From: a phage
Assembly: GCA_024613925.1 (NCBI GenBank)
Contig: GCA_024613925.1_4713.1
DNA: 64,000 bases
Direction: 5' to 3' (one strand)
How positions within the stretch are numbered: position 1 is the stretch's first letter; each line of letters starts with the position of its first letter. The notes below the pieces were generated by a model. That model saw only the letters and a list, made by a program, of their open reading frames with translations. It did no database searches and was not told the origin of the DNA. The position numbers and the translations under genes were made by a program. Positions 4,109 to 63,589 of this stretch are shown here, one piece after another.

Positions 4109-4140
4109 CATCCTCCCAACCCGTAAGGGAAGGGAGGATG
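4109..4140 (-). terminator. intrinsic terminator, CCTCC/GGAGG-arm hairpin family
   Basis: catcctccc / gggaggatg stem with inner ccc-gtaa-ggg; minus strand continues GGTTTTTATG; follows tmk (minus) and also abuts the plus gene 3796..4104. Confidence 0.7.
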
Positions 4141-7522: not shown

Positions 7523-10042
7523 TTAAATAATCGTGACGTGTTCGTTATACGTTTCAGGGAGGATGATGTTCGTTTTATCAAGAACCATACACTCGGCTTT
7601 ACGGAATGATGCATGGTTGATCACATAGTGGCTGATGAACCACACTTGGCTTACGCGGTGGCCATCAACCAGACGACGAACAAAATCCATGGCATTAGAT
7701 TGGTGCTGGGGATCAAATGTTGATGCGAATTCATCTAACATCAACGGATAATCCGTGAACCCTTTGTAGTGCATCATCGCGATGATGAACGCGATGTTGA
7801 TAATTTCCTTTTGTCCCTTACTCCCACAAACAATATCTTTTCGCGGTGTCGGATACTTCTCAGTTAAAAGCGGAAAACGATAGTTCAATCCTTGCGCGTC
7901 GATAGCACACGGGAGTATCTGAAGTTGGTATTCCCAAATACTCGCAATGATACCGTTCATGTACTCAACGAACGCGTTGATGGGACCCGCAATTGTTTCG
8001 GCAATCAGTCCGTTAGATGGACTTAACTCATCCAGAACAAGTTGTGCATAACCGAGTTGTTCTTCCACCTCTTTTTGTGTCGTTTCCAGCTGAGCCAGAA
8101 GCTGTTGGTCGGTTTTAGCTTCTTGTAACTGCTGTTCGACATGGCTTATTCGGCGAACCGTATCAGACATCGCGGCACGTAACGATTTCGTGTAGAGGTG
8201 TTGCAAGTACTCTAACCACAGTTGGGTTAACGCTTTATCGCTGTTATCAGAACGCACTTGATCTTCCATAATCGCCGTAATGGTTTCTAGTCTACCTTCC
8301 GTAGCTGTAATGGCTTGTGTTAATCGCTCAACGGTCATTAACAACTCTGTCCTGTTCTTATAAAGCAATTCTCGGCGTTGCTGTAACGGTTCAACATCAA
8401 CCGCTTGTACACGTTCGAGCATGCCTTGAAGATGCTTCCGTTCTTGTTCGGCTTGTGTGTAACGCGCAAGTTTCTCAAACGCAAGCAACCAATCGTTAAT
8501 GATTCCAATGCTGCGGAATCCTAAACCGTTTTTACGTCCTTCTTCCAGCAGATTATCCCACATGGGTTTAATGGCGTAATAATCCTTCGTCCAACGTGTT
8601 AACTGACGATGCTGTTCCATCCAGAGCGTATAGCGCTGAACCTTCTCGCTAAGCTCGGCTAACGATTTCTCTTGTTCTTCAACCCAAGCACGGCCTTTCT
8701 GAATGCGTTGTTCAATACCCGCTTTGCTGGTCTTTTCTGTTTCACCAACATGAAAGCGATAGTTGCATTTTGGACAGCTGGTCTGGGGTTGATGATTCAG
8801 GTGGTCGAGATGCGCTTCCAAATCAGCTAACGCATGTTTCGCGTTACGCAAACGCATTCTTGCCGCCTCTTCCTCCTTGATGTAAGCTTCAGCATCGTAA
8901 ACATGATAGGTGTTGTCGGTATCAATCCATTCTTGGAGTAATTCCGTTAATGGAGCCTGAACTTGCGTGAGCTGTTGTAAACAAACCGCAGCGTCCAGAT
9001 TCATTGTTAAAAGCTCACCTGGATGATCTTGCTGAAGCTGTTCGTCCAAACAAGCAAGGCGGGCTTTAATCTGATCAATATCACCTTCTCCAGACTGTTT
9101 CAACTGGTCAAGGATATTATCGATACCCAACAGCTCATCAACCTGACTTTCGAGTTTTGCATTCGCATTCGCGAGTTGCTCTCTTAGTTCAGCCAGATTC
9201 TGCTGTTCTTGTTGCGATGTTCCTCCTTGGTAACGAACAACTGCACGTAGAAGCTCACGATTAAAATGATGGGCACGTTGTGCGGATTCCAGAAGCTGTC
9301 GTTGATCAACATCGCTATCGAATAACGGCAATCCCATCATCGCTTCGAGTGCTGAGCGTTGCTGCTTTAACTCTGCTTCTAATCCCTGGTGGTCGGTGCC
9401 GGTGTATTTCGCTTCAATGCGCTGTGATGTTTCAACCAACTTATTCAGTGTATGCTCATTCACCGCTTTCAGTGAACGTACTTGTTGCTTAACCACCTGA
9501 AACAACTCAAGCGCATAATCGACGTTAACCGGACATATCTGCGTTAATCGTTCGCGTCGTTTCATCGGACCCATTTCGGTGAACTGGTAAGCTGTTTCGT
9601 AACCTAACAACAAACGAATAGTGTCGTCATTAAGCTCGAAATGTTCCTCGATTAGTTTCCACTGGGCTGGTTGTGTACCACCACCATTCAGGTTCTCGCT
9701 GTCGTTAACGTAGAACTCATGCTTAAACCCTTTTTCTAAACGACTGATAAGACGGTATTGCTTATTACGGTGTTCGCAGCGGTACTCGTAATACCCGTCT
9801 TTATCAAAATCGGCACGCTCAGGAACGGTCGGATACAGCAAAGGCAATAGACTACTCTTACCGGAACCATTACTGCCTAAAATGAGTTGTACGGGATTAT
9901 CTGGCCGGATGACCAGCTCCCGAATCATCCCGGTATCAAAACGATTGAATCCACGTAAGTGGAGATAGGTGCATCGCATGCTATGATAATCCTTCTTCGA
10001 TACCTTCTGAACCCGTGGTTCAGAATGCGAAGCTGAAGCCAT
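7523..10042 (-). CDS. SbcC/Rad50-like SMC-family ATPase
   Basis: N-terminal Walker A LILGSNGSGKSSLL, long coiled-coil region with central CPKC zinc-hook-like CxxC, C-terminal signature-like CGSKGQKE, Walker B LMLDEF and H-loop ISH; likely true start at MRCTYLHLRGF (about 9979). Confidence 0.7.
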   Translation of the reverse strand: MASASHSEPRVQKVSKKDYHSMRCTYLHLRGFNRFDTGMIRELVIRPDNPVQLILGSNGSGKSSLLPLLYPTVPERADFDKDGYYEYRCEHRNKQYRLISRLEKGFKHEFYVNDSENLNGGGTQPAQWKLIEEHFELNDDTIRLLLGYETAYQFTEMGPMKRRERLTQICPVNVDYALELFQVVKQQVRSLKAVNEHTLNKLVETSQRIEAKYTGTDHQGLEAELKQQRSALEAMMGLPLFDSDVDQRQLLESAQRAHHFNRELLRAVVRYQGGTSQQEQQNLAELREQLANANAKLESQVDELLGIDNILDQLKQSGEGDIDQIKARLACLDEQLQQDHPGELLTMNLDAAVCLQQLTQVQAPLTELLQEWIDTDNTYHVYDAEAYIKEEEAARMRLRNAKHALADLEAHLDHLNHQPQTSCPKCNYRFHVGETEKTSKAGIEQRIQKGRAWVEEQEKSLAELSEKVQRYTLWMEQHRQLTRWTKDYYAIKPMWDNLLEEGRKNGLGFRSIGIINDWLLAFEKLARYTQAEQERKHLQGMLERVQAVDVEPLQQRRELLYKNRTELLMTVERLTQAITATEGRLETITAIMEDQVRSDNSDKALTQLWLEYLQHLYTKSLRAAMSDTVRRISHVEQQLQEAKTDQQLLAQLETTQKEVEEQLGYAQLVLDELSPSNGLIAETIAGPINAFVEYMNGIIASIWEYQLQILPCAIDAQGLNYRFPLLTEKYPTPRKDIVCGSKGQKEIINIAFIIAMMHYKGFTDYPLMLDEFASTFDPQHQSNAMDFVRRLVDGHRVSQVWFISHYVINHASFRKAECMVLDKTNIILPETYNEHVTII

Positions 10043-10093
10043 ACTTCAGCGTTATTTTCTATATCGTTATTTAAATCAGTAGGAGATTACAGC

Positions 10094-11182
10094 ATGAGCG
10101 ACCTGGCAACAGACAATCGCACAAAAGGGAGTCAGCTAGCTCCAGACAACAACGTAAGCGTTTTCCGTATCTATGCCTTGGGTACTGTTGCTGCCGACTT
10201 TTCCAATAAAAGTCTGGAGGAAGATCCTAACCAGGCGCTGGAGGTCTTTCTTGATGAGATGATGTCAGGCGCTGATGGGAAAGTTGAAGCGGCGGGAAGC
10301 GTGAAAGAAGTCAGTGCAACAGACGCTCAAGGGAACAGCTATACGGCGAAAGCGGCAACAACAACCAGCGTACAGTGTTACTGGTTACCCTTCGGCAGTA
10401 ACCGGATGACAGCACCTAACTTGAGGAAAGGTCAGCGCGTGGTGGTTTGGCGAACCGCGGATGAAGAACAACTCTACTGGCAGCCCAAAGGAGGGGATAG
10501 TGAGCTGATGACCATGGAATCGGTTATCCTCACCGTCAGCGCACGTCCTAGCGCCAAGAAGGACCGTAAATCGATTTCAACGGAAGACTGCTATTACTTA
10601 ATGGTTGATACCTTCCTCAAGAAAGCGGTTATCGGCACCAGCGCACAGCTTGGTGAAGTTACCCAAGTCTACATGGAACTTAATCTGGACGAGGGTTACC
10701 TACAGGTTGCGGACAGCGTCCATCAAAACCTGTTGTTGCTCCATTTTGTCGAACATATGCTGCGTTATCAAAACCAGGACGACAGCATCATCGACGTGAC
10801 AAAAAAGAACATCACATTCCAGTGCGAGGATACGCTCAAAGCAATTGCTAAGAACGATATCCGAATGAAAGCAAAAAACATTTATACCGAATGTGAGAAC
10901 TTCGAGCGTACCAGCAAAACAGAAAGCGTTACGAGTCAGAATGTTTCTTTGAAGTGTGACCGTTACACCGCGCAAGTATCAGGACAGACCACGTTCAAAT
11001 GTCCTAATACGGTATTCACTGGAGCTGTAAGCTTCACAGGTGAAGACGGGAACACGATGACGTTGAATGGGAACTTCATACACATCGCAGGCTCTTGGCG
11101 TTCACCAACCGGAACAAACGTATACACCCACGATCACGGCGGTGTAGATCGTGGCAGCGGTCGTACAGACCCGTTCCAATAA
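10094..11182 (+). CDS. hypothetical protein (possibly virion-associated)
   Basis: 362-aa ORF with AGGAG 8 nt upstream of ATG; followed by terminator 11203..11254. Confidence 0.5.
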   Translation: MSDLATDNRTKGSQLAPDNNVSVFRIYALGTVAADFSNKSLEEDPNQALEVFLDEMMSGADGKVEAAGSVKEVSATDAQGNSYTAKAATTTSVQCYWLPFGSNRMTAPNLRKGQRVVVWRTADEEQLYWQPKGGDSELMTMESVILTVSARPSAKKDRKSISTEDCYYLMVDTFLKKAVIGTSAQLGEVTQVYMELNLDEGYLQVADSVHQNLLLLHFVEHMLRYQNQDDSIIDVTKKNITFQCEDTLKAIAKNDIRMKAKNIYTECENFERTSKTESVTSQNVSLKCDRYTAQVSGQTTFKCPNTVFTGAVSFTGEDGNTMTLNGNFIHIAGSWRSPTGTNVYTHDHGGVDRGSGRTDPFQ

Positions 11183-11202
11183 AAAAAAGAAATGCTATAC
11201 AA

Positions 11203-11254
11203 CCTCCTTCCCTAGCCATCAAGGCCGGGGAAGGAGGATTATAGTTTATTTATT
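11203..11254 (+). terminator. intrinsic terminator, probably bidirectional
   Basis: cctccttccctagcc-atcaa-ggccggggaaggagg (13 to 15-bp stem) followed by attatagtttatttatt; A8 tract upstream; lies between convergent genes. Confidence 0.7.
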
Positions 11255-11642
11255 AACGCGTTGCATTCTGGATGATTTCTTTTCCGATCTTAACCAAAGC
11301 GGGTATCTGTACAGCGGTTGCGCCTCGATGACGAAACGCGGTCGTTAACGCAGTATCGATACTCACCGCACGTCCGTGAAGACGATCGAAATAGACTTGA
11401 GTGATTGCAGTAGCGTAATCCTTTCGCTGTTTCTTGGTTTGGCTCAACAGCGCCGCACTATGACTAACGATGAAGTAAGCGATTAAGAAGAACGCCGCTG
11501 AACGCGAACCGGGTAGAAAACCTTGTCGCTTAGGGAGCATCTCACAGTCGCGAACAGAATTATCGTTCGCGAGCTCTTCCATGTCAACGCAGCATAATTT
11601 TGCATAGGTGTGGAGATAGTGGGTAAAAGTTGAATTTAACAT
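11253..11642 (-). CDS. hypothetical protein (small, last gene of early-type cassette)
   Basis: 129-aa ORF with hydrophobic segment AAFFLIAYFIVSHSAALL. Confidence 0.4.
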   Translation of the reverse strand: MLNSTFTHYLHTYAKLCCVDMEELANDNSVRDCEMLPKRQGFLPGSRSAAFFLIAYFIVSHSAALLSQTKKQRKDYATAITQVYFDRLHGRAVSIDTALTTAFRHRGATAVQIPALVKIGKEIIQNATR

Positions 11643-11747
11643 TTTCTTTCCTCGATTACAATGAGTTCAATGTATAGCTTAAACGTCACAGAACGACGTA
11701 TAACGGTTTGTTTTAATTTCTAAGGGGTTTCCCTATCTAAGATTGAA

Positions 11748-12110
11748 TTAAAGCGTTCTGAAGAGTTCTGTCGCGTTCTCGTCACGTAAACAGGCTTCGT
11801 TCAACAACTCCGCCAACAACTTCGATCTAACTTCAACGAATGTCCTGGTACGATGCTCCCAGTCTAAACGGATGGTGTAGGTATCATCCATGTTTCTGTG
11901 GTCCACAACAGATGTTGAACAGCGCGTTTCTTGTTTATTCACAGCACTCCAGACATCACGGATAATCGTCATGCCTTTCTTGGTACACGTAAACGTTAAG
12001 ATACAACGATTATTCGCTGCTTCTTCACAAACGTGAATAAATTCGCTTCGTAGCGATGAGGTCTTGGTCAATCGATCGATAGCGAGCGATAAACCGATAC
12101 GTTGTTGCAT
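11748..12110 (-). CDS. hypothetical protein (small, early-type cassette)
   Basis: 120-aa ORF; start adjoins the stop of 12112..12537. Confidence 0.4.
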   Translation of the reverse strand: MQQRIGLSLAIDRLTKTSSLRSEFIHVCEEAANNRCILTFTCTKKGMTIIRDVWSAVNKQETRCSTSVVDHRNMDDTYTIRLDWEHRTRTFVEVRSKLLAELLNEACLRDENATELFRTL

Positions 12111-12111
12111 A

Positions 12112-12537
12112 TCAAATCCCCTCTTTCAGAATCTCATTAAGACCGTCAGTAATCCAGTCGAACTTCGTCTTAATCATGGCTGGGTTCAATCCATATACTT
12201 CCCACACAAGCTGGGGTTTATGTGTTCCATCGTCCAAACAAAGCACATCGATTGAGAGTACCATACCACCCGTCAATTTCATGTTCTCGCAACTACGAAG
12301 ATATGCGGATTCTAGCAATACTTTCCCTAACGCAGTGCAAGCAAATGTTAACCGGGAAGAGTACAGGTACGATGACGTTTTACAGTAGGTTGCTGATATC
12401 GGTTGAATATGTTTGCGGAGTTTGGCGTCTTCACGTAAAAGCAATAACGTGTGATGTAACCGCGTATGCTCGGTAACCGATGAGCTATACTCACCGATAC
12501 ACTCTTCGGCGACTGATTTAGGCCATTTAATTTTCAT
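12112..12537 (-). CDS. hypothetical protein (small, early-type cassette)
   Basis: 141-aa ORF; N-terminus MKIKWPKSVAEE resembles MEIKFCKSIAIV of the next gene. Confidence 0.4.
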   Translation of the reverse strand: MKIKWPKSVAEECIGEYSSSVTEHTRLHHTLLLLREDAKLRKHIQPISATYCKTSSYLYSSRLTFACTALGKVLLESAYLRSCENMKLTGGMVLSIDVLCLDDGTHKPQLVWEVYGLNPAMIKTKFDWITDGLNEILKEGI

Positions 12538-12552
12538 ATTCGATTCCTCGTA

Positions 12553-12996
12553 TTAACACTGTGTTCCATTCGATAAGCGGGTGGTATCAAAACGATCCAG
12601 TTGGTGTACAATGCTATCAGCAACACGATGCAAATAGTGTATTTTGTCCATTCGTGAAATCGCAGAAATCGTCCAGCAAGCCTCTGACGTCCAATAGGTG
12701 CCGTCTTCACTAAGGCTAACGTTATAAACTAACTTCGTCATCACATTTCTCGCCTTATGCTCAGCAGACCAGAATATGTTTTCTAACACATCCTTCCCCG
12801 TTTGTGAAAACACGAACCCAAGCTTCACGTCGAAGTCGGATGCTTCAAGATTAACGCAGTGAAGATGATTCTCTAACGGCGCAAAAGAGGCTAAACGTTC
12901 CAGCGCATGTTGCAGTGTGGGATGATCGAGCTTTTCGAGATCATCCACAGGTTGTTCAGGTACAATCGCGATCGATTTACAGAATTTAATTTCCAT
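12553..12996 (-). CDS. hypothetical protein (small, early-type cassette; possible paralog of 12112..12537)
   Basis: 147-aa ORF; shared N-terminal pattern with the neighbouring gene. Confidence 0.4.
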   Translation of the reverse strand: MEIKFCKSIAIVPEQPVDDLEKLDHPTLQHALERLASFAPLENHLHCVNLEASDFDVKLGFVFSQTGKDVLENIFWSAEHKARNVMTKLVYNVSLSEDGTYWTSEACWTISAISRMDKIHYLHRVADSIVHQLDRFDTTRLSNGTQC

Positions 12997-13108
12997 GGTA
13001 GGTTCCTCTTGATAGTGGTTGATGATAGTAACGGGGACGGCGATGTCCCCTTGGTTTCTTATTGCCCCGCCCGAACCCGATGAGGTACAGGCGGGTGATG
13101 TTGATGCG

Positions 13109-13516
13109 TTATAGCGGCATCAGACGTTCTTTAAGTTGGGTTAACTTATTTGCAACGATGTTCTCAACGTCGATCATCTTGTTCATGTTGTCGAGGGTAT
13201 CCTGCCAGATGAAAATATCCACGGAACCGGTTCCGACTAACGCGTTCTCAGGACGATGGTCGCGGGTCACGTAGCGTGGTCTCTGCGGGCAGGTTTGTAA
13301 CTCGATCCAAAGCGCATCTAACGGACCACGGTCCGTGACACCTAAGGCGAAGAATTCACCTCGTACGACCAGAACATCATCAGCCGTCCTGACACGGGTT
13401 GATCCTTCGTACACCAATTCCATCTTTGCTCGACAGGCTGGGTTCTCGTTCCATGCCTGGACGGCATCGGCAAGGGCTATTGACGTTGCGGTGGTGTTCG
13501 TTTGATCATGTTGCAT
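13109..13516 (-). CDS. hypothetical protein (small, early-type cassette)
   Basis: 135-aa ORF, co-oriented. Confidence 0.4.
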   Translation of the reverse strand: MQHDQTNTTATSIALADAVQAWNENPACRAKMELVYEGSTRVRTADDVLVVRGEFFALGVTDRGPLDALWIELQTCPQRPRYVTRDHRPENALVGTGSVDIFIWQDTLDNMNKMIDVENIVANKLTQLKERLMPL

Positions 13517-13593
13517 TCTAAGCTCCTGTAACGCTCTCTAAGCGTCGTTTTAAGTTAAGGTATAGTTTCCCTTCTTTGGATTCGTTTATTGCG

Positions 13594-13869
13594 TTATACG
13601 GCTTTTCTGTGCGCGTAGAACGCCTTCGTTCCGTTGTTGATTGCTTCAACCACATCCCGGGTTAACACAACGGCGTTATCGCTTCGAGACGACGGTGCGT
13701 AATACCCTTCACCGTTCTCGGTAATCAGGCGATAACGGACTAAGCCTATGCTCGGTTCAACACGTAGCACCTTCTCAAGTTTGTATTTGATGATCTTCGT
13801 CAGGCTGACTGTGTCTGACGCGTAGATTGCTTTATAAACCTTGTTCTTTGCTGTCGGTTTCATCAACAT
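13594..13869 (-). CDS. hypothetical protein (small, early-type cassette)
   Basis: 91-aa ORF, co-oriented. Confidence 0.4.
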   Translation of the reverse strand: MLMKPTAKNKVYKAIYASDTVSLTKIIKYKLEKVLRVEPSIGLVRYRLITENGEGYYAPSSRSDNAVVLTRDVVEAINNGTKAFYAHRKAV

Positions 13870-13909
13870 GATTTCTGTTGTACTTTCCTTTTCGCTTGTT
13901 GGTGTTGGA

Positions 13910-14263
13910 TTAAGGTTTAGGTTCCGTTTTGTGTTGTGCGAGTAGTGTGTTGATCTGCTCCCGTTGTTCTTTTAAGCATGCAGGAAGCTGGTCTTCCCGT
14001 ACCGTTCCGATTTCCAACGTGATGTACCAGCGTTGTTCGGAAGCCTGCCATTGAAAACTGCTCTGTAACCGCAGGATGTTAGGATCACGTACCTTGTTTG
14101 CGCTGTAGCGGTTGAACCAATCCAGGTAAGCGGCTTTTCCTTCATCATCGGCAACGTAACGCTGCACGCTGTTCTTGCCTTTGTTCTCGTATCCTGTTGT
14201 ACGTATCATGCGAACGTTTCTCCTGTAACGTGTTGTGGATGGCGTAGCATGGTAGCATCCCAT
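13910..14263 (-). CDS. hypothetical protein (small, early-type cassette)
   Basis: 117-aa ORF; true start probably internal (MIRTTGYENKG) just after the stop of 14206..14988. Confidence 0.4.
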   Translation of the reverse strand: MGCYHATPSTTRYRRNVRMIRTTGYENKGKNSVQRYVADDEGKAAYLDWFNRYSANKVRDPNILRLQSSFQWQASEQRWYITLEIGTVREDQLPACLKEQREQINTLLAQHKTEPKP

Positions 14264-14988
14264 TGTACGATCCGGCTCCGGCTTACCCGCATCATGATGG
14301 ATTCATCGTCAAGCCCTGGTTGTGCAACCGGCAACCAACGTTCGTTAAGCACCTTCGCTTCAACGCGTTTCTTGCGGGGATTGTAACGCACCTCGCTGAC
14401 CCAAGCAAATCCAAGTGGATGCACAACCCGTGGATAATACATGCGAAGCAATTGATGCATCCGATCCGTTGCCTCCAAGCTCGCATCCGCCAGGTAAGGT
14501 TTCACCATGGTAAGCTTTTTGGTGTAATACGTTCCAACGGTATGGTTACGCCAACTTGGCAAGGCATGATCCCCTTCTCTCAGTTTGCTATCCGGGTTCA
14601 TCGGCCAGACCTGCTGTTTACCGGCCAGCATCGCGTACTGCCGATCAACGCAACGAACCTGATCGGCGAACAATGGATCCAGAACATCATCCACCGCACC
14701 CTTATTGCGATAACCGTGATGTACCACCAACCTGCTTGCGCTCATCGATGCGGGATGCTGGCTCTTATGCGCATACAGCCCTCCGTCACCGCGAGCGTCG
14801 TAAAGATAACCGCATGCGCCACGCCATATCACCTTGCCTACGGTTCTCTCGTTTTCAAGCAGCATCGTCGGCCCATCAAGCAAATTGGTGAACCACTGCA
14901 CCTTCACGCATTCCGCTTGGACATGCTCGGGTAATGCCTGATACTCTTTTTGGGTGTATAAGGTATCAAAAATGATTTCATCGTTCAT
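14206..14988 (-). CDS. hypothetical protein (first gene of early-type cassette)
   Basis: 260-aa ORF; promoter-like motif copy B about 85 nt upstream; the fully overlapping plus ORF 14263..14934 looks like its antisense shadow. Confidence 0.5.
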   Translation of the reverse strand: MNDEIIFDTLYTQKEYQALPEHVQAECVKVQWFTNLLDGPTMLLENERTVGKVIWRGACGYLYDARGDGGLYAHKSQHPASMSASRLVVHHGYRNKGAVDDVLDPLFADQVRCVDRQYAMLAGKQQVWPMNPDSKLREGDHALPSWRNHTVGTYYTKKLTMVKPYLADASLEATDRMHQLLRMYYPRVVHPLGFAWVSEVRYNPRKKRVEAKVLNERWLPVAQPGLDDESIMMRVSRSRIVQWDATMLRHPQHVTGETFA

Positions 14989-15062
14989 CTAAAAAGTTCC
15001 TCTGTTTCACGTTAATTAAACAACGTATTGATTTCTGGTAACGATAACATCACTAGGTTTGT

Positions 15063-15090
15063 CATCACTAAGGTAATATAGTCGTGAAAG
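15063..15090 (-). promoter_or_regulatory. conserved promoter-like motif, copy B (minus reading TTTCACGACTATATTACCTTAGTGATGA)
   Basis: near-identical to copies A, C and D; partially duplicated (catcactagg 10 nt upstream); heads the 8-gene cassette. Confidence 0.55.
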
Positions 15091-15546
15091 GATTTGTGTT
15101 ACAGCGAGGGGTTTTGTTGTTTTTAAGAAGGGATGGATTTAGAAGAGGTGTTTCAAGGAAGGTAAACGAGGATAGGTATTTTGATTTAAGTAATTAAGTA
15201 AGATGTTATCTGTATTCGTTAAAAGTGTATTGTCTATCTTAAGTTATGTCTTATTGTTTAATCGTTTAATATTTTTATCTAAATAGGTTTAACTCTATCT
15301 TGTTTGTGTATTTAAATTAATTTAAAAAGCTTATCTTCAAAACAATGGATAACATGTGTTTACTACCTTAACGGTAACACATGTCATCTGTGCATTACAC
15401 TTCGTTACATGCTAGTTAAATCCGGATAACTCAAAAAACATTTGTGATACTCTTCTTCACGTTGTTCATCAGAGTATCTCGTCTATACTCATTGCATTCG
15501 TATACGACATAACCGTTATACGCTAACGCTACGCTTATAGCTTGAT

Positions 15547-15610
15547 AACTCTAAGGATAAAAACATAAACTCGCTTCGCTCGTTTAGTTTTTCTTTTTCT
15601 TAGAGTTATC
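15547..15610. repeat. 12-bp perfect inverted repeat (GATAACTCTAAG / CTTAGAGTTATC) separated by about 40 nt
   Basis: read directly; the spacer holds a smaller TAAAC/GTTTA hairpin. Confidence 0.6.
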
Positions 15611-15777
15611 CTGTTGCTCGTCTCTAAAGGACTTCGCTCCTCCCCCGTCCCCCGAAGGGGCCGAGGTCGTGGAAATTTTACTTTCCAAATACATTTACAA
15701 CATCTGTAAACTTTTACTCCAGGTACTTAATCTTATCATTAGAAATTATAAAAGAGAAGAATAAACACAAACATAAA

Positions 15778-15809
15778 CCTTCCTCCAACCCAACAGGGAA
15801 GGAGGAAGG
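15778..15809 (-). terminator. intrinsic terminator, CCTCC/GGAGG-arm hairpin family
   Basis: ccttcctcc-aacccaacagggaa-ggaggaagg; minus strand continues GGTTTATGTTTGTGTTTATT; 15 nt downstream of the stop of 15824..16723. Confidence 0.7.
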
Positions 15810-15823
15810 GGGATTAATTAAAA

Positions 15824-18463: not shown

Positions 18464-20512
18464 TTAAATACCCTTGGTTCCTTTCACGTGATGTGCGATT
18501 TCTTCAACCATTGCACGCAGAGCACGAAGCTGTTGGTCGTGTTCGTACCAACCGCCTAACAGAACCCCGCTATACACCATGGTGTCAAGACTTAACAGCC
18601 CTTTATCTGATACGTTGATCATTTCAGGGAACTGTTCTTGAACACGCTGTGCAATAACACCGATCTTCTCGACATCAGGATCGTAGTTGTGACGGAAACG
18701 GGCAAGCCCACTGCGTGCCATTTCACGTAAACGATCGCTAAGAGATTCTGGATGATCTTTCAGATAACGGATGTCATGTTTACTACGCTCGTCTGAACGG
18801 ATGTAAGCGTTAGGGACATCGATGTTGCTGTTGAAGTACAGCGCGCTACCACCACCTGCAGAGTTCCCCCAATAGAAGCGAGTGATCTCACCGCCACCAT
18901 TCTCCGTGATGATAACATGTTTACCTAAACGCGTACCACCATTACCATCAACGAAGACCAGTTTGTTTCCGCTGTAAGAACCCCAGAACAAGCGCGTATC
19001 GATGATGTGCGTTGCAGCGAGACGGGCGTTACGTGGTGTAGAATACACGGTGTTAACATCTTGCTGAGCATGTGCATCGGAAGCGATACCATAGTTCTGT
19101 ACGTTACCCAACCCAACCTGCGCTTTCGTAACAGCGTGAGGGTTGTCTCGACGGTTAGCGTGAGCGTTAACCAGATCGCCCGCTAATTTCTGAATTGCCC
19201 AGTTGGTAGACTGCGGTGTCATGTAACGGTTAGTTGCAGAACCACCTTGCGCTTCAGCTTGGTTAGCGGTTGGATAGTTCTCAACACTTCCTAACCCTAC
19301 TTGTGCTTTAGACACTTGGTGTGGGTTATTCTTGTCAGCGATGTGTGCATTAAGCGGAACTAACGCAAAGGTCTCAATGGACGCTTTGGTTGTGTTCGGT
19401 GCCATTAATCGGTTAGCTGCAACCCCGGCACGCGCTTCTTCTTCAGAAGCCATCGGATAGTCTTGCACATTCCCTAATCCCACCTGGGCTTTCGTTACCC
19501 TGTGTGGGTTGTTATAATCGGCTTTGTGTGCATTAAGTGGAATCAATGCGAACTGTTCAATTGCTGCAACGGTACGTAGCGGTGTCATGAAACGGTTGTT
19601 CGCTGTTCCGGCTTTCGCCTCGTCATCCGAAGCAGTCGGGAAGTTATCAACGTTCCCAAGGTTAACCTGCGCTTTGGTGACGCTATGCGGGTTATCCCGA
19701 CGGTTAGCGTGCGCATCGACTAGATCGCCCGCCAGTTTAGCAATCGCCCATCCAACCGTTTGTGCGGTCATGTAACGGTCAGGTGCGGTACCGGCTTCTG
19801 CCTCCGCCTTGTTGGCGGTAGGATAGTTCTGTACGTTACCTAGTCCGACTTGGGCTTTTGTTACTTCGTGCGGGTTATCGGTACGGTTAGCATGCGCGTA
19901 ATGCAGATCGGTCAGATCTTTATCCGCTGCTTGCATATCTTTGCGTAGCTGATCGATTGCCGCCCAGAGACGGTTATCGGATGCAGCATCACCGATAAGT
20001 ATTGCGGCTTTCAGTGAATAGATCGCTAAGCAAAGATGTTCGGTACCGTAAATAGCACTAACGTGGTGGATGTGTGGTTCAGGCGGATAAAGTTCCGGTT
20101 TGTTCTTGATGTCATCCCAGTTGATCGGACGATCGTCAAGTTTGAGTTCTTCGATAGCCTGATATAACGCGTCAATAAGGCTTACGTAAACGCCACCGAT
20201 GATGCGATAGTCGTTAACTAACGTCCCCTCGATATCATCGTTGATAATGGCGATCGCCGCACAGATTTCTTTACCCGCGTAAAGCGTTGCATCCTGATAC
20301 AAGAAAATGGGTTTATAATCCACGCCTCGTACCAGTGTCTTACCGGTAAGCTTTTCAGTGATGACCAGACTTTCGGTGAAGAACGGTCCGCCATCGAGGG
20401 CGTAACATTTATTCTCGGTTCGTGGAACGGTGTGCTCTTCACCAACGATGTGGTTGCTATCGAGCGTGCCGGTCCAGTCCTCGGGGTACTTCAGGGTAAT
20501 TGGTGTTGACAT
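18464..20512 (-). CDS. tail fibre protein with about 61-aa repeats and C-terminal S74-type intramolecular chaperone domain
   Basis: five repeats of N-P-H-x-V-T-K-A-Q-V-(G/N)-L-G-N-V-x-N-(Y/F); C-terminal S-D-E-R-S-K (Ser-Lys dyad pattern of auto-cleaving fibre chaperones) and GVLLGGWYEHDQQLRAL. Confidence 0.7.
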   Translation of the reverse strand: MSTPITLKYPEDWTGTLDSNHIVGEEHTVPRTENKCYALDGGPFFTESLVITEKLTGKTLVRGVDYKPIFLYQDATLYAGKEICAAIAIINDDIEGTLVNDYRIIGGVYVSLIDALYQAIEELKLDDRPINWDDIKNKPELYPPEPHIHHVSAIYGTEHLCLAIYSLKAAILIGDAASDNRLWAAIDQLRKDMQAADKDLTDLHYAHANRTDNPHEVTKAQVGLGNVQNYPTANKAEAEAGTAPDRYMTAQTVGWAIAKLAGDLVDAHANRRDNPHSVTKAQVNLGNVDNFPTASDDEAKAGTANNRFMTPLRTVAAIEQFALIPLNAHKADYNNPHRVTKAQVGLGNVQDYPMASEEEARAGVAANRLMAPNTTKASIETFALVPLNAHIADKNNPHQVSKAQVGLGSVENYPTANQAEAQGGSATNRYMTPQSTNWAIQKLAGDLVNAHANRRDNPHAVTKAQVGLGNVQNYGIASDAHAQQDVNTVYSTPRNARLAATHIIDTRLFWGSYSGNKLVFVDGNGGTRLGKHVIITENGGGEITRFYWGNSAGGGSALYFNSNIDVPNAYIRSDERSKHDIRYLKDHPESLSDRLREMARSGLARFRHNYDPDVEKIGVIAQRVQEQFPEMINVSDKGLLSLDTMVYSGVLLGGWYEHDQQLRALRAMVEEIAHHVKGTKGI
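19010..19900 (-). repeat. in-frame tandem repeat array (5 units of about 185 bp) inside the tail fibre gene
   Basis: recurring ...gtgnggGTTnTc...cggttagcgtg... at DNA level and NPHxVTKAQVGLGNV at protein level; boundaries approximate. Confidence 0.6.
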
Positions 20513-24189: not shown

Positions 24190-26343
24190 TTATAACGTTT
24201 CGAAGTCTTTTGCCTTGATGACCGCGTTGAAGTTGGCAAGGAATTCCTTAAGTAATGCTTGGAAAACATCGCGGAACGCCGCGTTCGTCTTCAAGCTGGT
24301 TAAATAATCGTTCTTAAGGTAATCACTCAGCTTACCGATCTTCTGCATCTTCTCGCCGTCTTGGTTCTCTCCAGGTTCTTGGCTGTTGATGTTAACCCAT
24401 TTGATCCCTTCGAGATCGCCATCGGCAAGGAAGTTAGCGGGTGTCTCATCATCGTTCAGGATTTTAATTGTATCACTGGATTCAATGCCGCCGTAAGCTT
24501 CCAGAAGCTGGTTGATGGTCAACTTATTGACGTTGATTGAACCATTGACACCATCGATAACGATGCCTGCACCTGTGATAGACGTTGCTGAAAGATCGAT
24601 TGGTCCGGTTAACTTACCCCCATTGATAGGGAGCGCACCGACTTGTTCGGCTGTGTGCGTATGATCGGCTAACGCCGCGAACGCTGCAATCGACTTGTAA
24701 GTCGAGTACGGTGTCATGTACGCTGTCTGGTTAGTCCTGTCAGCAGCTTGCACATCGGTGGCGACAGCAAAGTCCTGTACGTTCCCTAACCCCACTTGTA
24801 CCTTGGTTACTTCATGCGGGTTACTCTTATCGACAACGTGTGCTGCAAAACCATCACCTGCTAAAGCGATGATCGCTGCTTTTGTCGCAGCCGGTGTCAT
24901 ATAGCGGTTGGTCGCTACACCTGTTTGTGCTTCCACATCAGAAGCAACGGGATAGTTCTCAACGCTTCCCAACCCCACCTGCGCCTTGGTGACCCTGTGT
25001 GGGTTCTCGGTATTTGCGATGTGGCTACTGAACCCCTGACCAGCCATTTGCTCGATTGCATAACGAACAAGTATTGGTGTCATGTACTTGTTGTTAACCT
25101 GACCGTCGATAGCTTCTTGGGTAGTAGCAACCCCAAAGTTCTGCACGCTTCCCAGACCGACTTGGGCTTTGGTCACCCCATGTGGGTTGTTGGTGTTACC
25201 GATATGTTCGGTTACGGTTGGGGTGATTAACGCTGCGATGGCGGCTGCTGTGGTTGCAGGCGTCATGTATTTGTTGTTAGCAACACCCGCACCGGCTTCT
25301 GTGTTAGATGCTAAACCAAAGTCCTGCACATTACCTAACCCAACTTGGGCTTTGGTCACCCCATGTGGGTTGCTCTTGTTTCCGGTATGGGCTGTCAGCG
25401 AAGCATTAACGTTATCGATACGCGTACTTAAGCCATCAGTGATTGCTTTGATTGCTGCTCGTACACCCGCTGGAGTTGTGTACAGATTAGTGGCCGTACC
25501 GGTAATGGTTGCATTACTATCGGCTACACCGTAGTTCTCAACGTCCCCGAGTCCCACCTGGGCTTTGGTCACCTTGTGTGGGTTGTTGCGGTTACTGATG
25601 TGTGCGGCGGCACTATCACCACTAAGGTTAGCGATCATCTTACGCGTCATCGCCAACGTCATGTACAGATTTTCACCAACGGTTTCCAGATCGCTCTCGG
25701 TCGCTGTTGTGAAGTTCTGCACGTTCCCCAACCCAACCTGGACTTTCGTAACGCCGTGGGGATTATCGCGTCGATTCTCATGCTGCACTAACGCAGTCAT
25801 TGCTTTATTGAACCCTTCTTCAAGCGGTTCTTTCAATGATTCGATTGCCGCCACCACATCGTCCCACGTCATTGTGTCGGTTTCGACATTATGTTGGTGG
25901 TTGATTGGTGGGAATACGGAAGGAACGTCAGCAACCTTTTCCCAGAACGTAATGCGGGGGTCGTAGAGGTTGTTGGCTAAAACGTTAAGAATTTGTTGTT
26001 GATCAAGTGTAAACTCACCCCCCAGTGAATAGTAGTTCAGTTGCAACTGTCCACTGAATGCGGTGTCCAACAGCATGATGGAACCGTATAATTCCAGGCC
26101 GGTCAGCGCAGCCATGGCACGGAAGGGGTGAGTGCATAAAAAGTCAACGCCTTCTTCCAGATACGCGTTTGTTTCAGGGTTGTAGATCTTTAACCCATTA
26201 CGAAAATATGGCGCGTATTTAGGAACGAGAAAGTTAAATCCGGTCCCCGTGGAAGGACGGACAGTGACGAGTTCTTCTGGAACCCATGCGCCATCCAAAT
26301 TCCCCTGCGGGTTATACGGAAGGCGTTTAATTTCATCTGTCAT
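24190..26343 (-). CDS. tail fibre protein with NPH-VTKAQVGLGNV repeats
   Basis: 717 aa; at least 7 repeats of N-P-H-(G/K/R/E)-V-T-K-(A/V)-Q-V-G-L-G-(N/S/D)-V-(Q/E)-(N/D)-(F/Y), the same repeat type as 18464..20512. Confidence 0.7.
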   Translation of the reverse strand: MTDEIKRLPYNPQGNLDGAWVPEELVTVRPSTGTGFNFLVPKYAPYFRNGLKIYNPETNAYLEEGVDFLCTHPFRAMAALTGLELYGSIMLLDTAFSGQLQLNYYSLGGEFTLDQQQILNVLANNLYDPRITFWEKVADVPSVFPPINHQHNVETDTMTWDDVVAAIESLKEPLEEGFNKAMTALVQHENRRDNPHGVTKVQVGLGNVQNFTTATESDLETVGENLYMTLAMTRKMIANLSGDSAAAHISNRNNPHKVTKAQVGLGDVENYGVADSNATITGTATNLYTTPAGVRAAIKAITDGLSTRIDNVNASLTAHTGNKSNPHGVTKAQVGLGNVQDFGLASNTEAGAGVANNKYMTPATTAAAIAALITPTVTEHIGNTNNPHGVTKAQVGLGSVQNFGVATTQEAIDGQVNNKYMTPILVRYAIEQMAGQGFSSHIANTENPHRVTKAQVGLGSVENYPVASDVEAQTGVATNRYMTPAATKAAIIALAGDGFAAHVVDKSNPHEVTKVQVGLGNVQDFAVATDVQAADRTNQTAYMTPYSTYKSIAAFAALADHTHTAEQVGALPINGGKLTGPIDLSATSITGAGIVIDGVNGSINVNKLTINQLLEAYGGIESSDTIKILNDDETPANFLADGDLEGIKWVNINSQEPGENQDGEKMQKIGKLSDYLKNDYLTSLKTNAAFRDVFQALLKEFLANFNAVIKAKDFETL
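24710..25775 (-). repeat. in-frame tandem repeat array inside the second tail fibre gene
   Basis: recurring ccccatgtgggttg / ccttgtgtgggttg DNA units at about 180-bp spacing; boundaries approximate. Confidence 0.6.
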
Positions 26344-27738: not shown

Positions 27739-27770
27739 CCCTCCTCCAACCCAACAGGGAAGGAGGAGGG
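27739..27770. terminator. CCTCC/GGAGG-arm hairpin between convergent genes (probably bidirectional terminator)
   Basis: ccctcctcc-aacccaacagggaa-ggaggaggg; convergent gene ends at 27728 (plus) and 27780 (minus). Confidence 0.6.
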
Positions 27771-43240: not shown

Positions 43241-43266
43241 GTCACCTAGGTAATGTAAGCGTCAAA
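43241..43266 (-). promoter_or_regulatory. conserved promoter-like motif, copy C (minus reading TTTGACGCTTACATTACCTAGGTGAC)
   Basis: near-identical to copies A, B and D; about 150 nt upstream of the start of 41656..43098 and just downstream of the terminator of the major structural gene. Confidence 0.5.
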
Positions 43267-43299: not shown

Positions 43300-43329
43300 C
43301 CTCCCCCAACCCTTACGGGCTGAGGGAGG
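43300..43329 (-). terminator. intrinsic terminator: perfect 13-bp stem with GUAA tetraloop on the minus strand
   Basis: minus reading CCUCCCUCAGCCC-GUAA-GGGUUGGGGGAGG followed by UUUCUAUGCCGUUU; about 100 nt after the stop of 43429..45651. Confidence 0.75.
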
Positions 43330-48096: not shown

Positions 48097-48128
48097 CCCT
48101 CCTCCAACCCGTAAGGGAAGGAGGAGGG
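48097..48128. terminator. CCTCC/GGAGG-arm hairpin between convergent genes (probably bidirectional terminator)
   Basis: ccctcctcc-aacccgtaagggaa-ggaggaggg with A9 tract upstream. Confidence 0.6.
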
Positions 48129-49519: not shown

Positions 49520-49834
49520 CGTATTTTACCTTTCTATGTTAGGTGGGTTGCGGATAGAAGAATCAATGCATAGATTGATCGTTCTTTGTTAGAAATTATT
49601 GCCGAACCGGTTATGGTTATATGGTTGGTAGTACGCCATAGGCTCCGGTTTAGGGATTTCCATGGTCGGATTTTTGGAATTGATTGCCATCACGTAAATT
49701 GTTACGGGCGATACCGCGTGATTCATTTCGACGGCCACACGGTTGTTTGATCGATTGTTCAACTGGTACTGATTACGATTGGTTGATAACAGTAGAGCTA
49801 CTGCCTAAAACTCTACCGTTGTTTAGATACCGTA

Positions 49835-50695
49835 TTAGGATATACGGTGCATCGTCGGTGCGATTGGTCGTTGACCAAGGTAGAATGTATATCTCGGACG
49901 ATTTTTCGGTGCCTGGTTCGGTTGAGGATTCTTCGAATCGATAGCTAACACGTAGTACTGAAGTGTGGGGTTGAGTGTCGTCAGATAGTTTCTGATGAAC
50001 TCCTCGTTTAAACTTTCAGTCGGGGTTAGTATGTGCCCGTTGATTGTAACGACGGTACCATCGGAACGTATTTCACGAACAATGCACCAAGCCCCCGCAC
50101 CAACATCGGTAGGAATAGTCGTGCTGGGAGTAATGGTTAGATATTTATCGAAGAATTCGCAACAAAGAGGATGCATGTAGACCGTTACGGTATCATCTCC
50201 TGGCGAGGTTCTCTCTTTTGTTACAGGATCCTTCGTCGGTACAAATGTGTTAATTTTGGCTACCTTATCAGCATCTTCGTTCGCTTCGATATAAATCTCT
50301 GCTTTACCATGTACGCTCTGAGCTATACGACGTAACTGTTCGTATGTTTTCGGTGAGGTTAGCTGTACCCGACTGAGCAGCTCATCGTACCAAGCTTCGA
50401 AGGTGCTTGTTGGTATCTTAACGTATGCCTTATTTCCGGTTTCATTTTCATCCCGGAAGATAATCGCAACGGTATCAGGCTCATCAAGAGAATCCAGGTA
50501 AACAATGTGTTCGACCAACGCAGAAAACGTTTTACGTCCGGTTCCTCCATAGTACGGGTTTGCTGAATGAACCAGCCGCCAGTTACATGAAGTTTGGATA
50601 TGATCGAAGGCGTTGATCATGTTTTTACTGTAACGAAAAATTTCAGTAAAATATTCTTTACGTTCTTTACTAAGACGTTTGTATATCTTGGTCAT
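49835..50695 (-). CDS. paralog family B member
   Basis: 286 aa; C-terminal half (YMHPLCCEFFDKYLTI ... GAGAWCIVREIRSDGTVVTINGH ... LNEEFI) matches 50749..51549. Confidence 0.5.
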   Translation of the reverse strand: MTKIYKRLSKERKEYFTEIFRYSKNMINAFDHIQTSCNWRLVHSANPYYGGTGRKTFSALVEHIVYLDSLDEPDTVAIIFRDENETGNKAYVKIPTSTFEAWYDELLSRVQLTSPKTYEQLRRIAQSVHGKAEIYIEANEDADKVAKINTFVPTKDPVTKERTSPGDDTVTVYMHPLCCEFFDKYLTITPSTTIPTDVGAGAWCIVREIRSDGTVVTINGHILTPTESLNEEFIRNYLTTLNPTLQYYVLAIDSKNPQPNQAPKNRPRYTFYLGQRPIAPTMHRIS

Positions 50696-50748
50696 TTTTG
50701 TAGCTCCTTGATTAAAGTAAGGATGGATACGATTATTTATTATCGCTT

Positions 50749-51549
50749 TTAGTTTTTACCATTCCCCCAGCAGGGTTCTTCGTAAAAATGGTGCGGATAG
50801 CGATAATGAGAATTATTGGGTCTTCCTGTCGTTTCTTTCTGTGAGTCGACGACTAACGCGTAAAATAATTGGTGCTTGTCCATCATCGAAAAGTAAGAGG
50901 CAAGCAGTTTTTCGTTTAACGCGTCGCATGGTCGACAGGTACGACCACAAAGCGTTACGATACGGCCGTCAGGATAAACTTCACGGATCGTTCGCCATTC
51001 ACCGATACCAACCGGCGATGGTGCTGATGTGCCGCCCGCTATCGTTAAATATCGGTCGTACGTAGTACGGCATTCGGGATGAACGTAAATTGGCTGGGTA
51101 TTAGTACTGTCGTTTTCGGTTTGATGTTTACTCACGTATACCTCAAGGTAGATCGTTGGTAATCCGATTAGAACGCCGGTATCACGACGTTTTTTGGTAA
51201 TCCGAGGACGGATACTATCGAGCACGCTTTCCAGTTTTTCTGCGACTTCGTCAGCCGGTAATATATACCAGTATTGTGGTTCTGGGTCATCACCATGACT
51301 GAATAAGATACGACAGTCGGTGCTATTATTTTCTTCTACTTCAGGCGGGAAGATGATGGTGTGAACCGTATGACGTTCTGCGATATAAAATCCTTCGGGT
51401 CCCTCAGTTTTGGTAAGTGTAAAGGACCAGGGTGAACAATCTTCAGGTGATAAGCCTGCTAGGAAAAAGTTCGTCCGGATTGGCGCGTCCCATTTCGTGA
51501 TCATGTTAGCGTGACCAATAACACCTAACTTTTGATAAATATCTGTCAT
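50749..51549 (-). CDS. paralog family B member
   Basis: start set at ATG of MTDIYQKLGV (51549) because the track ORF (to 51675) runs through promoter copy D and into the terminator hairpin; YVHPECRTTYDRYLTI ... GIGEWRTIREVYPDGRIVTLCG ... LNEKLL. Confidence 0.5.
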   Translation of the reverse strand: MTDIYQKLGVIGHANMITKWDAPIRTNFFLAGLSPEDCSPWSFTLTKTEGPEGFYIAERHTVHTIIFPPEVEENNSTDCRILFSHGDDPEPQYWYILPADEVAEKLESVLDSIRPRITKKRRDTGVLIGLPTIYLEVYVSKHQTENDSTNTQPIYVHPECRTTYDRYLTIAGGTSAPSPVGIGEWRTIREVYPDGRIVTLCGRTCRPCDALNEKLLASYFSMMDKHQLFYALVVDSQKETTGRPNNSHYRYPHHFYEEPCWGNGKN

Positions 51550-51604
51550 GATTGTATCCTCGATTATTAAGAGAAATTTACAATGATAACAGTAACCGCT
51601 GTTA

Positions 51605-51629
51605 TCACCTAGGTAATGTAGTCGTGAAA
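51605..51629 (-). promoter_or_regulatory. conserved promoter-like motif, copy D (minus reading TTTCACGACTACATTACCTAGGTGA)
   Basis: near-identical to copies A, B and C; about 64 nt upstream of the ATG at 51549. Confidence 0.5.
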
Positions 51630-51664
51630 TAAACTGGGGTAATGCGAAATAAGACAGCATAGAA

Positions 51665-51696
51665 CCCTCTCCCAACCCGTAAGGGAAGGGAGAGGG
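51665..51696 (-). terminator. intrinsic terminator, CCTCC/GGAGG-arm hairpin family
   Basis: ccctctccc-aacccgtaagggaa-gggagaggg; 6 nt after the stop of 51703..52434; minus strand continues TTCTATGCTGTCTTATTTCG. Confidence 0.65.
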
Positions 51697-63557: not shown

Positions 63558-63589
63558 CCTTCCTCCAACCCAACAGGGAAGGAGGAAGG
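63558..63589 (-). terminator. intrinsic terminator, CCTCC/GGAGG-arm hairpin family
   Basis: ccttcctcc-aacccaacagggaa-ggaggaagg, identical to the copy at 15778..15809; 11 nt after the stop of 63600..63923; minus strand continues GGTTTTATGG. Confidence 0.65.

Follow-up and report, generated by a model that had tools for sequence, protein, structure and literature searches.

An early-transcribed cassette of eight lineage-specific genes in a Goslar-like jumbo phage and its possible role in host interaction

Introduction

Early lineage-specific cassettes behind early promoters are familiar in large virulent phages. Accessory and anti-defence islands of such phages include the early 'host-takeover' genes of T4, the T7 class I genes, for instance ocr, and the pre-early genes of T5. 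Here we analyse a cassette of eight genes located at positions 11253-14988, minus strand, of a 64,000-nt stretch of phage DNA (NCBI GenBank assembly GCA_024613925.1, contig GCA_024613925.1_4713.1), hereafter referred to as the window. Like the islands of T4, T7 and T5, the cassette consists of small, lineage-unique genes that appear to be expressed first and are tightly packed, with tandem paralogs, gene turnover and raised protein evolution. Those islands use the host polymerase, whereas the cassette would depend on an injected phage polymerase acting in a membrane vesicle, and its products match no characterised takeover protein. It is a typical rather than an exceptional phage early accessory region.

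The early operons of phiKZ-like phages (Chimalliviridae) share the promoter core of the cassette (TATATTAC or TACATTAC in TTTCA...GTG flanks) and are, as it is, nucleus-independent, polycistronic, confined to one strand and bounded by hairpin terminators. In gene content, however, the cassette is unrelated by sequence to the early genes of phiKZ, PhiPA3, 201phi2-1 and the Erwinia phages, and its start is placed putatively at the motif.

For nucleus-forming jumbo phages, survival and control of the cell during the vesicle stage, which precedes the nucleus, are of wider interest, and defence systems that act at this stage, Avs5 and Juk, are known (PMC12931631). Since the content of the cassette differs between near-identical phages, it narrows the search for host-range, anti-defence and host-shutoff factors to a small group of candidates, comprising eight genes here and about twelve families in the group of phages as a whole; the E. 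coli phage concerned is a model with existing knockdown tools. The genes have been deposited before as hypothetical proteins and the expression data are available in a public supplement. New are the limits of the operon, the link between the promoter motif and the nucleus-independent blocks, two paralog families, the comparison of gene turnover and a lead on the fold of gp015-gp017.

Locus and data

Over 92% of its length, the 4.5-kb segment 11000-15500 of the window aligns to Escherichia phage vB_EcoM_Goslar with 94.8% nucleotide identity, at near-identical genome coordinates. Goslar (Goslarvirus, Chimalliviridae) is a jumbo phage of 237 kb that forms a nucleus. The eight co-oriented open reading frames (ORFs) of 91-260 aa reported in an earlier note on this DNA were all found on the minus strand in the ORF list. 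By identity and synteny they match one to one with Goslar gp021, gp020, gp019, gp018, gp017, gp016, gp015 and gp014 (genes A to H below), each of which is labelled 'hypothetical protein' in GenBank and RefSeq alike. No study of Goslar gp014-gp018 was found in the literature, the paper on CRISPRi-ART naming Goslar only in a passage on plaque-assay methods. The upstream flank is formed by gp022 and gp023, both virion proteins; downstream, on the opposite strand, lie gp013, a baseplate protein, and then an SbcC-like gene.

The comparison set consists of 13 genomes: the window, Goslar and the locus from eleven further Goslar-like genomes. Expression figures are those of the Goslar orthologs in an arrest at 30 minutes post infection (mpi), not of the window phage itself and not a gene-level time course; fold changes upon ChmA knockdown were taken from Sup. 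Table 2 of the corresponding preprint for the range gp001-gp060 plus chmA.

Early transcription of the cassette

The cassette is very probably a single early-expressed operon of about 3.9 kb. The principal evidence comes from Armbruster et al., who performed RNA-seq of Goslar with and without knockdown of ChmA, which arrests infection at the stage of the early-infection (EPI) vesicle (bioRxiv 10.1101/2023.09.20.558163). At this arrest only the injected virion RNA polymerase (vRNAP) is present, and the profile matches that of wild-type infection at 5-20 mpi (ibid.). In the tabulated range, gp014-gp021 show a log2 fold change (log2FC) of +0.8 to +1.4 in the knockdown, a normalised level that is about 2-fold higher, which resembles the early gene chmA in sign and size (+0.7 to +1.1). 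The flanks, in contrast, fall to log2FC -2.8 to -7.6 (gp005-gp013) and -3.5 to -6.8 (gp022-gp036, with the nucleus-dependent gp022 at -4 to -5.4), transcription on both sides being down 8- to 190-fold without the phage nucleus; gp048-gp060 show -2.5 to -7.1 (all values from bioRxiv 10.1101/2023.09.20.558163).

Nucleus-independent blocks within gp001-gp060 are limited to gp001-004, gp014-021, gp037-040 and gp044-047. The 64 kb of the window contain four copies of the motif TTTCACGnCTAyATTAC, all on the minus strand (2521-2537, 15073-15089, 43250-43266 and 51613-51629), and each of the four lies directly upstream of one of these four blocks. That gp014-gp021 are transcribed independently of the nucleus, with an early-like profile in Goslar, and that motif copies head all such blocks in the tabulated range, supports early expression. 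The earlier note had anticipated this and had named late timing as the outcome that would speak against it; late-only expression was not seen. Read density per kb, computed by hand from Sup. Table 2, stays within 2-fold over the eight Goslar genes, as expected for one polycistronic transcript.

The unit is delimited by the following features.

15782..15814, minus strand: terminator hairpin of the gp022 ortholog, the late gene upstream; upstream boundary of the region of the early unit.
15073..15089, minus strand: early promoter motif TTTCACGACTATATTAC (17 nt; 'promoter copy B'), which ends 85 nt ahead of the gene A ATG.
14989..15035, minus strand: conserved 3' part of the leader, with Shine-Dalgarno sequence AGAGGA, near-identical in 8/8 aligned genomes.
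11181..11237, minus strand: cassette terminator, a 15-bp interrupted hairpin (11237-11203) followed by a U-run (11192-11181).

The promoter-like motif that the note had placed at the head of the cassette is indeed present at 15089-15073 and is kept upstream of gene A in relatives. Exactly one copy occurs per relative locus examined, 92-150 nt upstream of the ATG of the first gene, the longer distances being caused by insertions between motif and ATG. It includes TATATTAC, the published core of the phiKZ early promoter, so that an early-promoter consensus with this type of core stands directly upstream of the first gene, and it fits the frame TTTCA..TATATTA..GTG predicted for early promoters of OBP, 201phi2-1 and N1M2 (PMC7058600 Table 2). 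The mapped leaders of chmA and an nvRNAP gene in Goslar are 91 nt long, comparable with the 85-92 nt of the cassette leader. Between the promoter and the conserved block at 14989..15035 the eight aligned genomes are variable, with indels. Host sigma-70 promoters were also considered; the 12 sites found against 10.9 expected correspond to chance level.

At the other end, the hairpin 11237-11203 (35 nt) has a folding energy of -31 kcal/mol and a z score of -5.1, with 0/200 shuffles folding as well. Together with the U-run this bears out the closing terminator that the note had put at 11203..11254. It is shared with the convergent plus-strand baseplate gene, and the Goslar annotation has a terminator at the same place.

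Genes of the cassette

The genes and the one structured spacer are listed in order of transcription.

Gene A, 14206..14988, minus strand: 260 aa, ortholog of Goslar gp021.
Gene B, 13910..14209, minus strand: 99 aa, ortholog of Goslar gp020; ratio of nonsynonymous to synonymous substitution rates (dN/dS) 0.21.
Gene C, 13594..13869, minus strand: 91 aa, isoelectric point (pI) 9.8, ortholog of Goslar gp019; dN/dS 0.26.
Gene D, 13109..13516, minus strand: 135 aa, ortholog of Goslar gp018; divergent short allele.
Spacer D/E, 12997..13108, minus strand: 112 nt with two stable hairpins, RNA fold of -34.2 kcal/mol.
Gene E, 12553..12996, minus strand: 147 aa, ortholog of Goslar gp017; member of the E/F/G paralog family.
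Gene F, 12112..12537, minus strand: 141 aa, ortholog of Goslar gp016; paralog of E.
Gene G, 11748..12110, minus strand: 120 aa, ortholog of Goslar gp015; without the N-terminal ~23 aa of E and F.
Gene H, 11253..11642, minus strand: 129 aa, pI 9.5, ortholog of Goslar gp014; dN/dS 0.13.

The second ORF is listed as 13910-14263, but a start at 14209 (99 aa), with an ATGA stop/start overlap with gene A, is most likely; the Goslar annotation and the gene calls in relatives use this same start. In order from A to H the junctions measure -4, 40, 77, 112, 15, 1 and 105 nt. The description of the junctions as short or overlapping hence holds only in part. A Shine-Dalgarno site of the GAGG/AGGA type precedes the ATG in 8/8 genes. 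The hairpin spacer 12997..13108 is a possible attenuator or processing site. Gene H was considered as a membrane protein, given a Kyte-Doolittle maximum of 1.85; conservation is confined to about 12 hydrophobic residues, the remainder of the stretch being variable and containing D, P and E, and the reading is not supported.

Distribution of the families

In agreement with the note's failure to recognise any motif, 8/8 proteins gave zero matches in Pfam, PHROGs, PADLOC, NCBIfam and the PDB sequences. A tblastn search with the eight proteins against 50,697 phage records identified Goslar only; in these records none of the eight was found to belong to the Chimalliviridae core represented by phiKZ, 201phi2-1, PhiPA3, RAY and others. 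Gene A was followed further. A word-indexed search of 5.8 billion clusters yielded 23 clusters, all on Goslar-like contigs, which are up to ~240-250 kb long and derive from E. coli, Shigella and Salmonella assemblies as well as from metagenomes. An exhaustive search of 1.84 billion representatives with a hidden Markov model (HMM) recovered six proteins, corresponding to two ortholog clusters and four paralog-type sequences, and no relative of family A outside the Goslar-like group. Families E/G and H were likewise found on Goslar-like contigs only, gene H with 5 clusters in the large protein collection, all of them at least 78% identical. Judged by these searches, the eight proteins lie outside the conserved chimallivirus machinery and are restricted to Goslar-like phages.

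Variation and selection among relatives

Across the 13 genomes the cassette occurs in seven gene orders with 5-11 genes, whereas its flanks do not vary on any contig that reaches into them. Relatives carry 1-4 tandem members of the gp021 family, each 249-300 aa long, and hhalign connects the groups of this family at a probability of 96.8-100% (96.8-98.1% for A2-A4 against A). Gene D has two alleles of 135 aa (window) or 156 aa (most relatives) that are about 40% identical; gene B is absent in the relatives L010, L017 and a few others, gene E is missing in some, and a family of 145 aa occurs in relatives and not in the window. All relatives for which that part of the locus is available carry F, G and H, with 12/12 for F.

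All eight families show dN/dS of 0.13-0.35 over the relatives, which is 2 to 20 times higher than for the neighbouring baseplate gene (0.016) and endolysin (0.07). By this measure the cassette genes are fast-evolving yet under purifying selection. Compared with Goslar, genes C, F and H are 100% identical at the amino acid level, E is within 99-100%, G reaches 86% and A 62%. In gene A the N-terminal ~150 aa have diverged from gp021 and the C-terminal ~110 aa are almost identical; in its family, too, the former part is hypervariable and the latter conserved. Gene H, the most conserved gene of the cassette, has 100% amino acid and 97.9% nucleotide identity to its Goslar counterpart, the 2.1% nucleotide differences causing no amino acid change. 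Synonymous divergence (dS) of the window from Goslar shifts abruptly from one gene to the next, with values of 0 to 0.65. This points to a recombination mosaic that arose through recent recombination among phages of the Goslar-like group, with a putative breakpoint in the middle of gene A.

A separate case was observed in L017 (Logan ERR10767929 contig), where positions 10001-10486 encode a chimeric first gene of 161 aa, the N-terminal third of which is gp021-like and the rest of which scores as family D. The cassette there comprises five genes; apparently an internal deletion removed B, C and the C-terminal domain of gp021.

Paralogs and predicted fold

The note had pointed out that the neighbours 12112-12537 (F) and 12553-12996 (E) look paralogous. 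Profile-profile comparison confirms this over the full length (95.7% probability, E-value 8.8e-9, 131 columns), and single-linkage clustering links E and F via relatives. Default BLASTP of E against F is not significant; the similarity appears only without composition correction or with profiles. Among all ORFs of the window, the HMM of F matches E at 3e-6 and that of G matches E at 3e-4; hhalign gives 47% for E-G and 38% for F-G, with all unrelated pairs below 3%. An alignment of E, F and G shows common invariant L, F, G and W positions. Gene G is therefore probably a remote, N-terminally shorter third member of the E/F family, as far as sequence comparison can tell.

From an alignment of family members, AlphaFold2 (AF2) models gp017 (E), with pLDDT 79.9 and pTM 0.76, as a helix, two strands, a helix, two strands and a long helix. 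The E/F/G family is accordingly predicted to adopt a DCoH/RBP11-like beta2-alpha-beta2-alpha two-layer fold. This DCoH-like fold is shared by the RBP11-like domain, or alpha N-terminal domain (alpha-NTD), of multisubunit RNA polymerases. RBP11 and the alpha-NTD show no sequence similarity to E/F/G and only 1-12% identity in structural alignments, the fold being common to many unrelated proteins. Sequence homology to the RBP11-like or alpha-NTD families was not found either: there is no Pfam match, and the profile search of PDB sequences gave nothing below an E-value of 0.79.

Foldseek with the gp017 model against PDB returned no match at E<=1e-3. YbjN/AmyR and Arp2/3 p34 were rejected as structural matches, both having a TM score below 0.3 in this search. 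Against BFVD the best matches (E-values 5e-5 to 4e-3, TM score 0.37-0.55) are uncharacterised jumbo-phage proteins of ~140-165 aa, namely PhiPA3 gp356, 201phi2-1 B3FJY3 and proteins of Erwinia phages Simmy50, Stratton and Kwan, Vibrio phage VP4B, Photobacterium phage PDCC-1 and Klebsiella phage RaK2. PhiPA3, 201phi2-1 and several of the Erwinia phages are themselves chimalliviruses. The matched proteins have no detectable sequence similarity to gp017, and the structural agreement is moderate. For gene A the AF2 model (21 sequences) reached a pLDDT of only 51.8, too poor for a fold search, and family A is therefore left without fold assignment.

Proposed function and alternative explanations

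The following course of events would account for the data. The virion RNA polymerase, injected with the DNA, would start at TTTCACGACTATATTAC (15089-15073) while the genome is inside the EPI vesicle and before the chimallin nucleus exists; that this is the polymerase involved is inferred, as are the exact ends of the transcript, which would stop at the hairpin 11237-11203. The mRNA would be exported and host ribosomes would translate the eight ORFs, each from its own Shine-Dalgarno site. The window phage is assumed to behave like Goslar in these respects. In the cytoplasm, during the first minutes, the products would act as an accessory host-interaction module that binds and neutralises host defence or physiological proteins. 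The gp021 family may consist of modular binders, variable in their N-terminal half and conserved in their C-terminal domain, and the triad gp017/gp016/gp015 may be small DCoH/RBP11-like dimerising adaptors.

The signature that fits a takeover or anti-defence role consists of lineage restriction, tandem paralogs, variable gene content, mosaicism and raised dN/dS. Such a role, which the note had derived from the layout of the genes, would be in keeping with these features. The functional part of the account, that is host interaction with gp021 proteins as modular binders and E/F/G as dimerising adaptors, is read from this evolutionary signature and is put forward tentatively. For the account in its entirety, early operon and accessory host-interaction module together, we have a mild preference.

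Several observations weigh against it. The RNA-seq data are from Goslar and, instead of following these genes directly over time, show that their transcription is independent of the nucleus at 30 mpi. None of the eight proteins matches a known anti-defence, toxin or takeover family in the libraries as searched (Pfam, PHROGs, NCBIfam, PDB sequences and PADLOC, the latter holding defence-system and not anti-defence proteins). The fold assignment derives from one AF2 model with a shallow alignment and concerns a common fold. Furthermore, all relatives examined have F, G and H, so the phage itself may require some of the cassette genes, which would then not be dispensable. Finally, purified Goslar virions yielded gp017, gp018 and gp016, a possible sign of a virion-associated role.

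A bolder version of the functional proposal can be formulated on the basis of the predicted fold, in which gp017/gp016/gp015, produced within minutes of infection, would mimic the dimerisation module of RNA polymerase alpha/Rpb11, either by poisoning the assembly of the host alpha2-beta-beta' core or as a lineage-specific platform or adaptor for the alpha-less phage polymerases, and the gp021 family would be a modular and rapidly diversifying binder of host immune sensors. We consider this a long shot. If true, an alpha/Rpb11 mimic that poisons the host core would be a new way of shutting off host transcription for a phage that is independent of the host enzyme, and the RBP11-like fold of the three-gene family at least offers one concrete hypothesis.

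Rather than the host, the cassette might target other phages, by excluding superinfection or by interfering with phages, Goslar-like or not, that infect the same cell. The gene-by-gene dS mosaic and the swapped alleles demonstrate frequent co-infection and recombination, and early expression falls in the time at which exclusion functions act. Yet no exclusion-type membrane protein is evident, the sole hydrophobic stretch, in gene H, having about 12 conserved residues, and the library searches gave no similarity to known exclusion proteins. Inter-phage competition is considered unlikely. It is unlikely, too, that the products are phage-internal early factors, involved for example in transcription by the phage RNA polymerases or in the transition from EPI vesicle to nucleus, with E/F/G as an alpha/Rpb11-like platform or adaptor.

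Another explanation is that gp017 and gp018 are packaged in the virion and ejected with the DNA, the cassette being partly structural. Mass spectrometry (MS) of Goslar virions lists gp017 with 4 peptides and an estimated 12-29 copies per virion, gp018 with 2 peptides and 2.5-6 copies, and gp016 with less than one copy (bioRxiv 10.64898/2026.04.21.720040 Table S4). The same table gives 5-33 apparent copies for vRNAP subunits, 13.5-32 for thymidylate synthase and 84-198 for chimallin. The preparation also contained PhuZ and nvRNAP; its authors interpret these two, chimallin and thymidylate synthase as co-purifying non-virion assemblies (bioRxiv 10.64898/2026.04.21.720040). The remaining five proteins, gp014, gp015, gp019, gp020 and gp021, are not among the virion-MS entries listed, and none of the eight is in the Goslar cryo-EM model. 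Detection of all products as virion components, which the note had named as contrary evidence, is therefore not what the listing shows: three of the eight are detected, at low level. Nucleus-independent transcription of the cassette, as opposed to the nucleus-dependent structural genes in both flanks, argues against this explanation as well. A partly structural cassette is thus quite improbable, and virion association is unlikely to be its main role. The copy number of gp017 was also considered as a sign of association with vRNAP, and this was rejected since non-structural enzymes are equally abundant.

That the ORFs are non-functional or mis-annotated filler, as the lack of database matches for any of them might suggest, is hardly credible in view of eight intact, conserved ORFs with dN/dS of 0.13-0.35, the exclusively silent nucleotide changes in gene H, a Shine-Dalgarno site per gene, transcription in Goslar and peptides for three products. 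We retain the early operon with an accessory host-interaction function as the preferred explanation.

Non-coding elements and further observations in the window

Upstream of the cassette lies a conserved non-coding element.

15433-15737, minus-strand sense: 305-nt non-coding block between the gp022 terminator and the early promoter.

The block is 92.5-100% identical in 13/13 genomes, with dS of 0.3-2 in the flanking genes, and its conservation stops abruptly after a hairpin and a U-run. It folds into about seven hairpins, one with a C(UUCG)G tetraloop (z score -4.05). Its few substitutions mostly preserve the pairing, with 9 variant pair types still paired, two-sided in 3 cases, against 3 that are broken; the pairing favours a minus-strand RNA. 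No Rfam match was found (gathering threshold for the whole window, E-value mode for the upstream region), nor a tRNA (ARAGORN) or a convincing ORF. The block is a candidate for a structured RNA gene not described before, or else for an element that acts at the DNA level. Between it and the promoter, the AT-rich segment 15100-15400 varies in length among relatives and contains repeats, GATAAC being observed 6 times against 1.2 expected and AGATA[AG] 5 times against 0.85, the five copies of this second word all on the minus strand. An iteron-like nature, with a role in replication or protein binding, is conceivable from these repeat counts.

Near-identical terminator hairpins of the form CCTCC(A/T)(A/T)CCC-loop-GGGAAGGAGG recur after many genes of the window.

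4113-4136, 15782-15805, 27743-27766, 43303-43326, 48101-48124, 51669-51692 and 63562-63585: terminator hairpin family.

The stem at 11203-11237 resembles this CCTCC..GGGAAGGAGG family, and variants of loop and stem are swapped between relatives.

Between the fourth promoter copy (51613-51629) and the gp046 ortholog lie ~1.9 kb that have no counterpart in Goslar (window 49600-51630 versus Goslar 49584-49812). This extra stretch of ~1.9 kb carries ORFs at 49835-50695 (286 aa) and about 50749-51560. The ORFs of this early block at 49.8-51.6 kb were considered as relocated gp021 paralogs and rejected, having no HMM match. In Goslar the motif at 49725-49741 falls within the annotated 62-aa gp047, so that the annotation of gp047 may be spurious.

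The SbcC-like ORF at window 7523-10042 has 839 aa here compared with the 818 aa annotated in Goslar and called in relatives; the extra residues stem from an upstream ATG, and the true start is therefore probably internal. Direct repeats with a 183-nt period, equivalent to 61-aa units that are 60-81% identical and present in ~10 copies, occur at 19075-19933 and 24688-25776 of the window. The two ORFs that contain them are large and lie on the minus strand (18464-20512 and 24190-26343). The first of these is the ortholog of Goslar gp025, which has a Peptidase_S74 domain, and the repeats suggest repeated domains common to two tail-fibre-like proteins.

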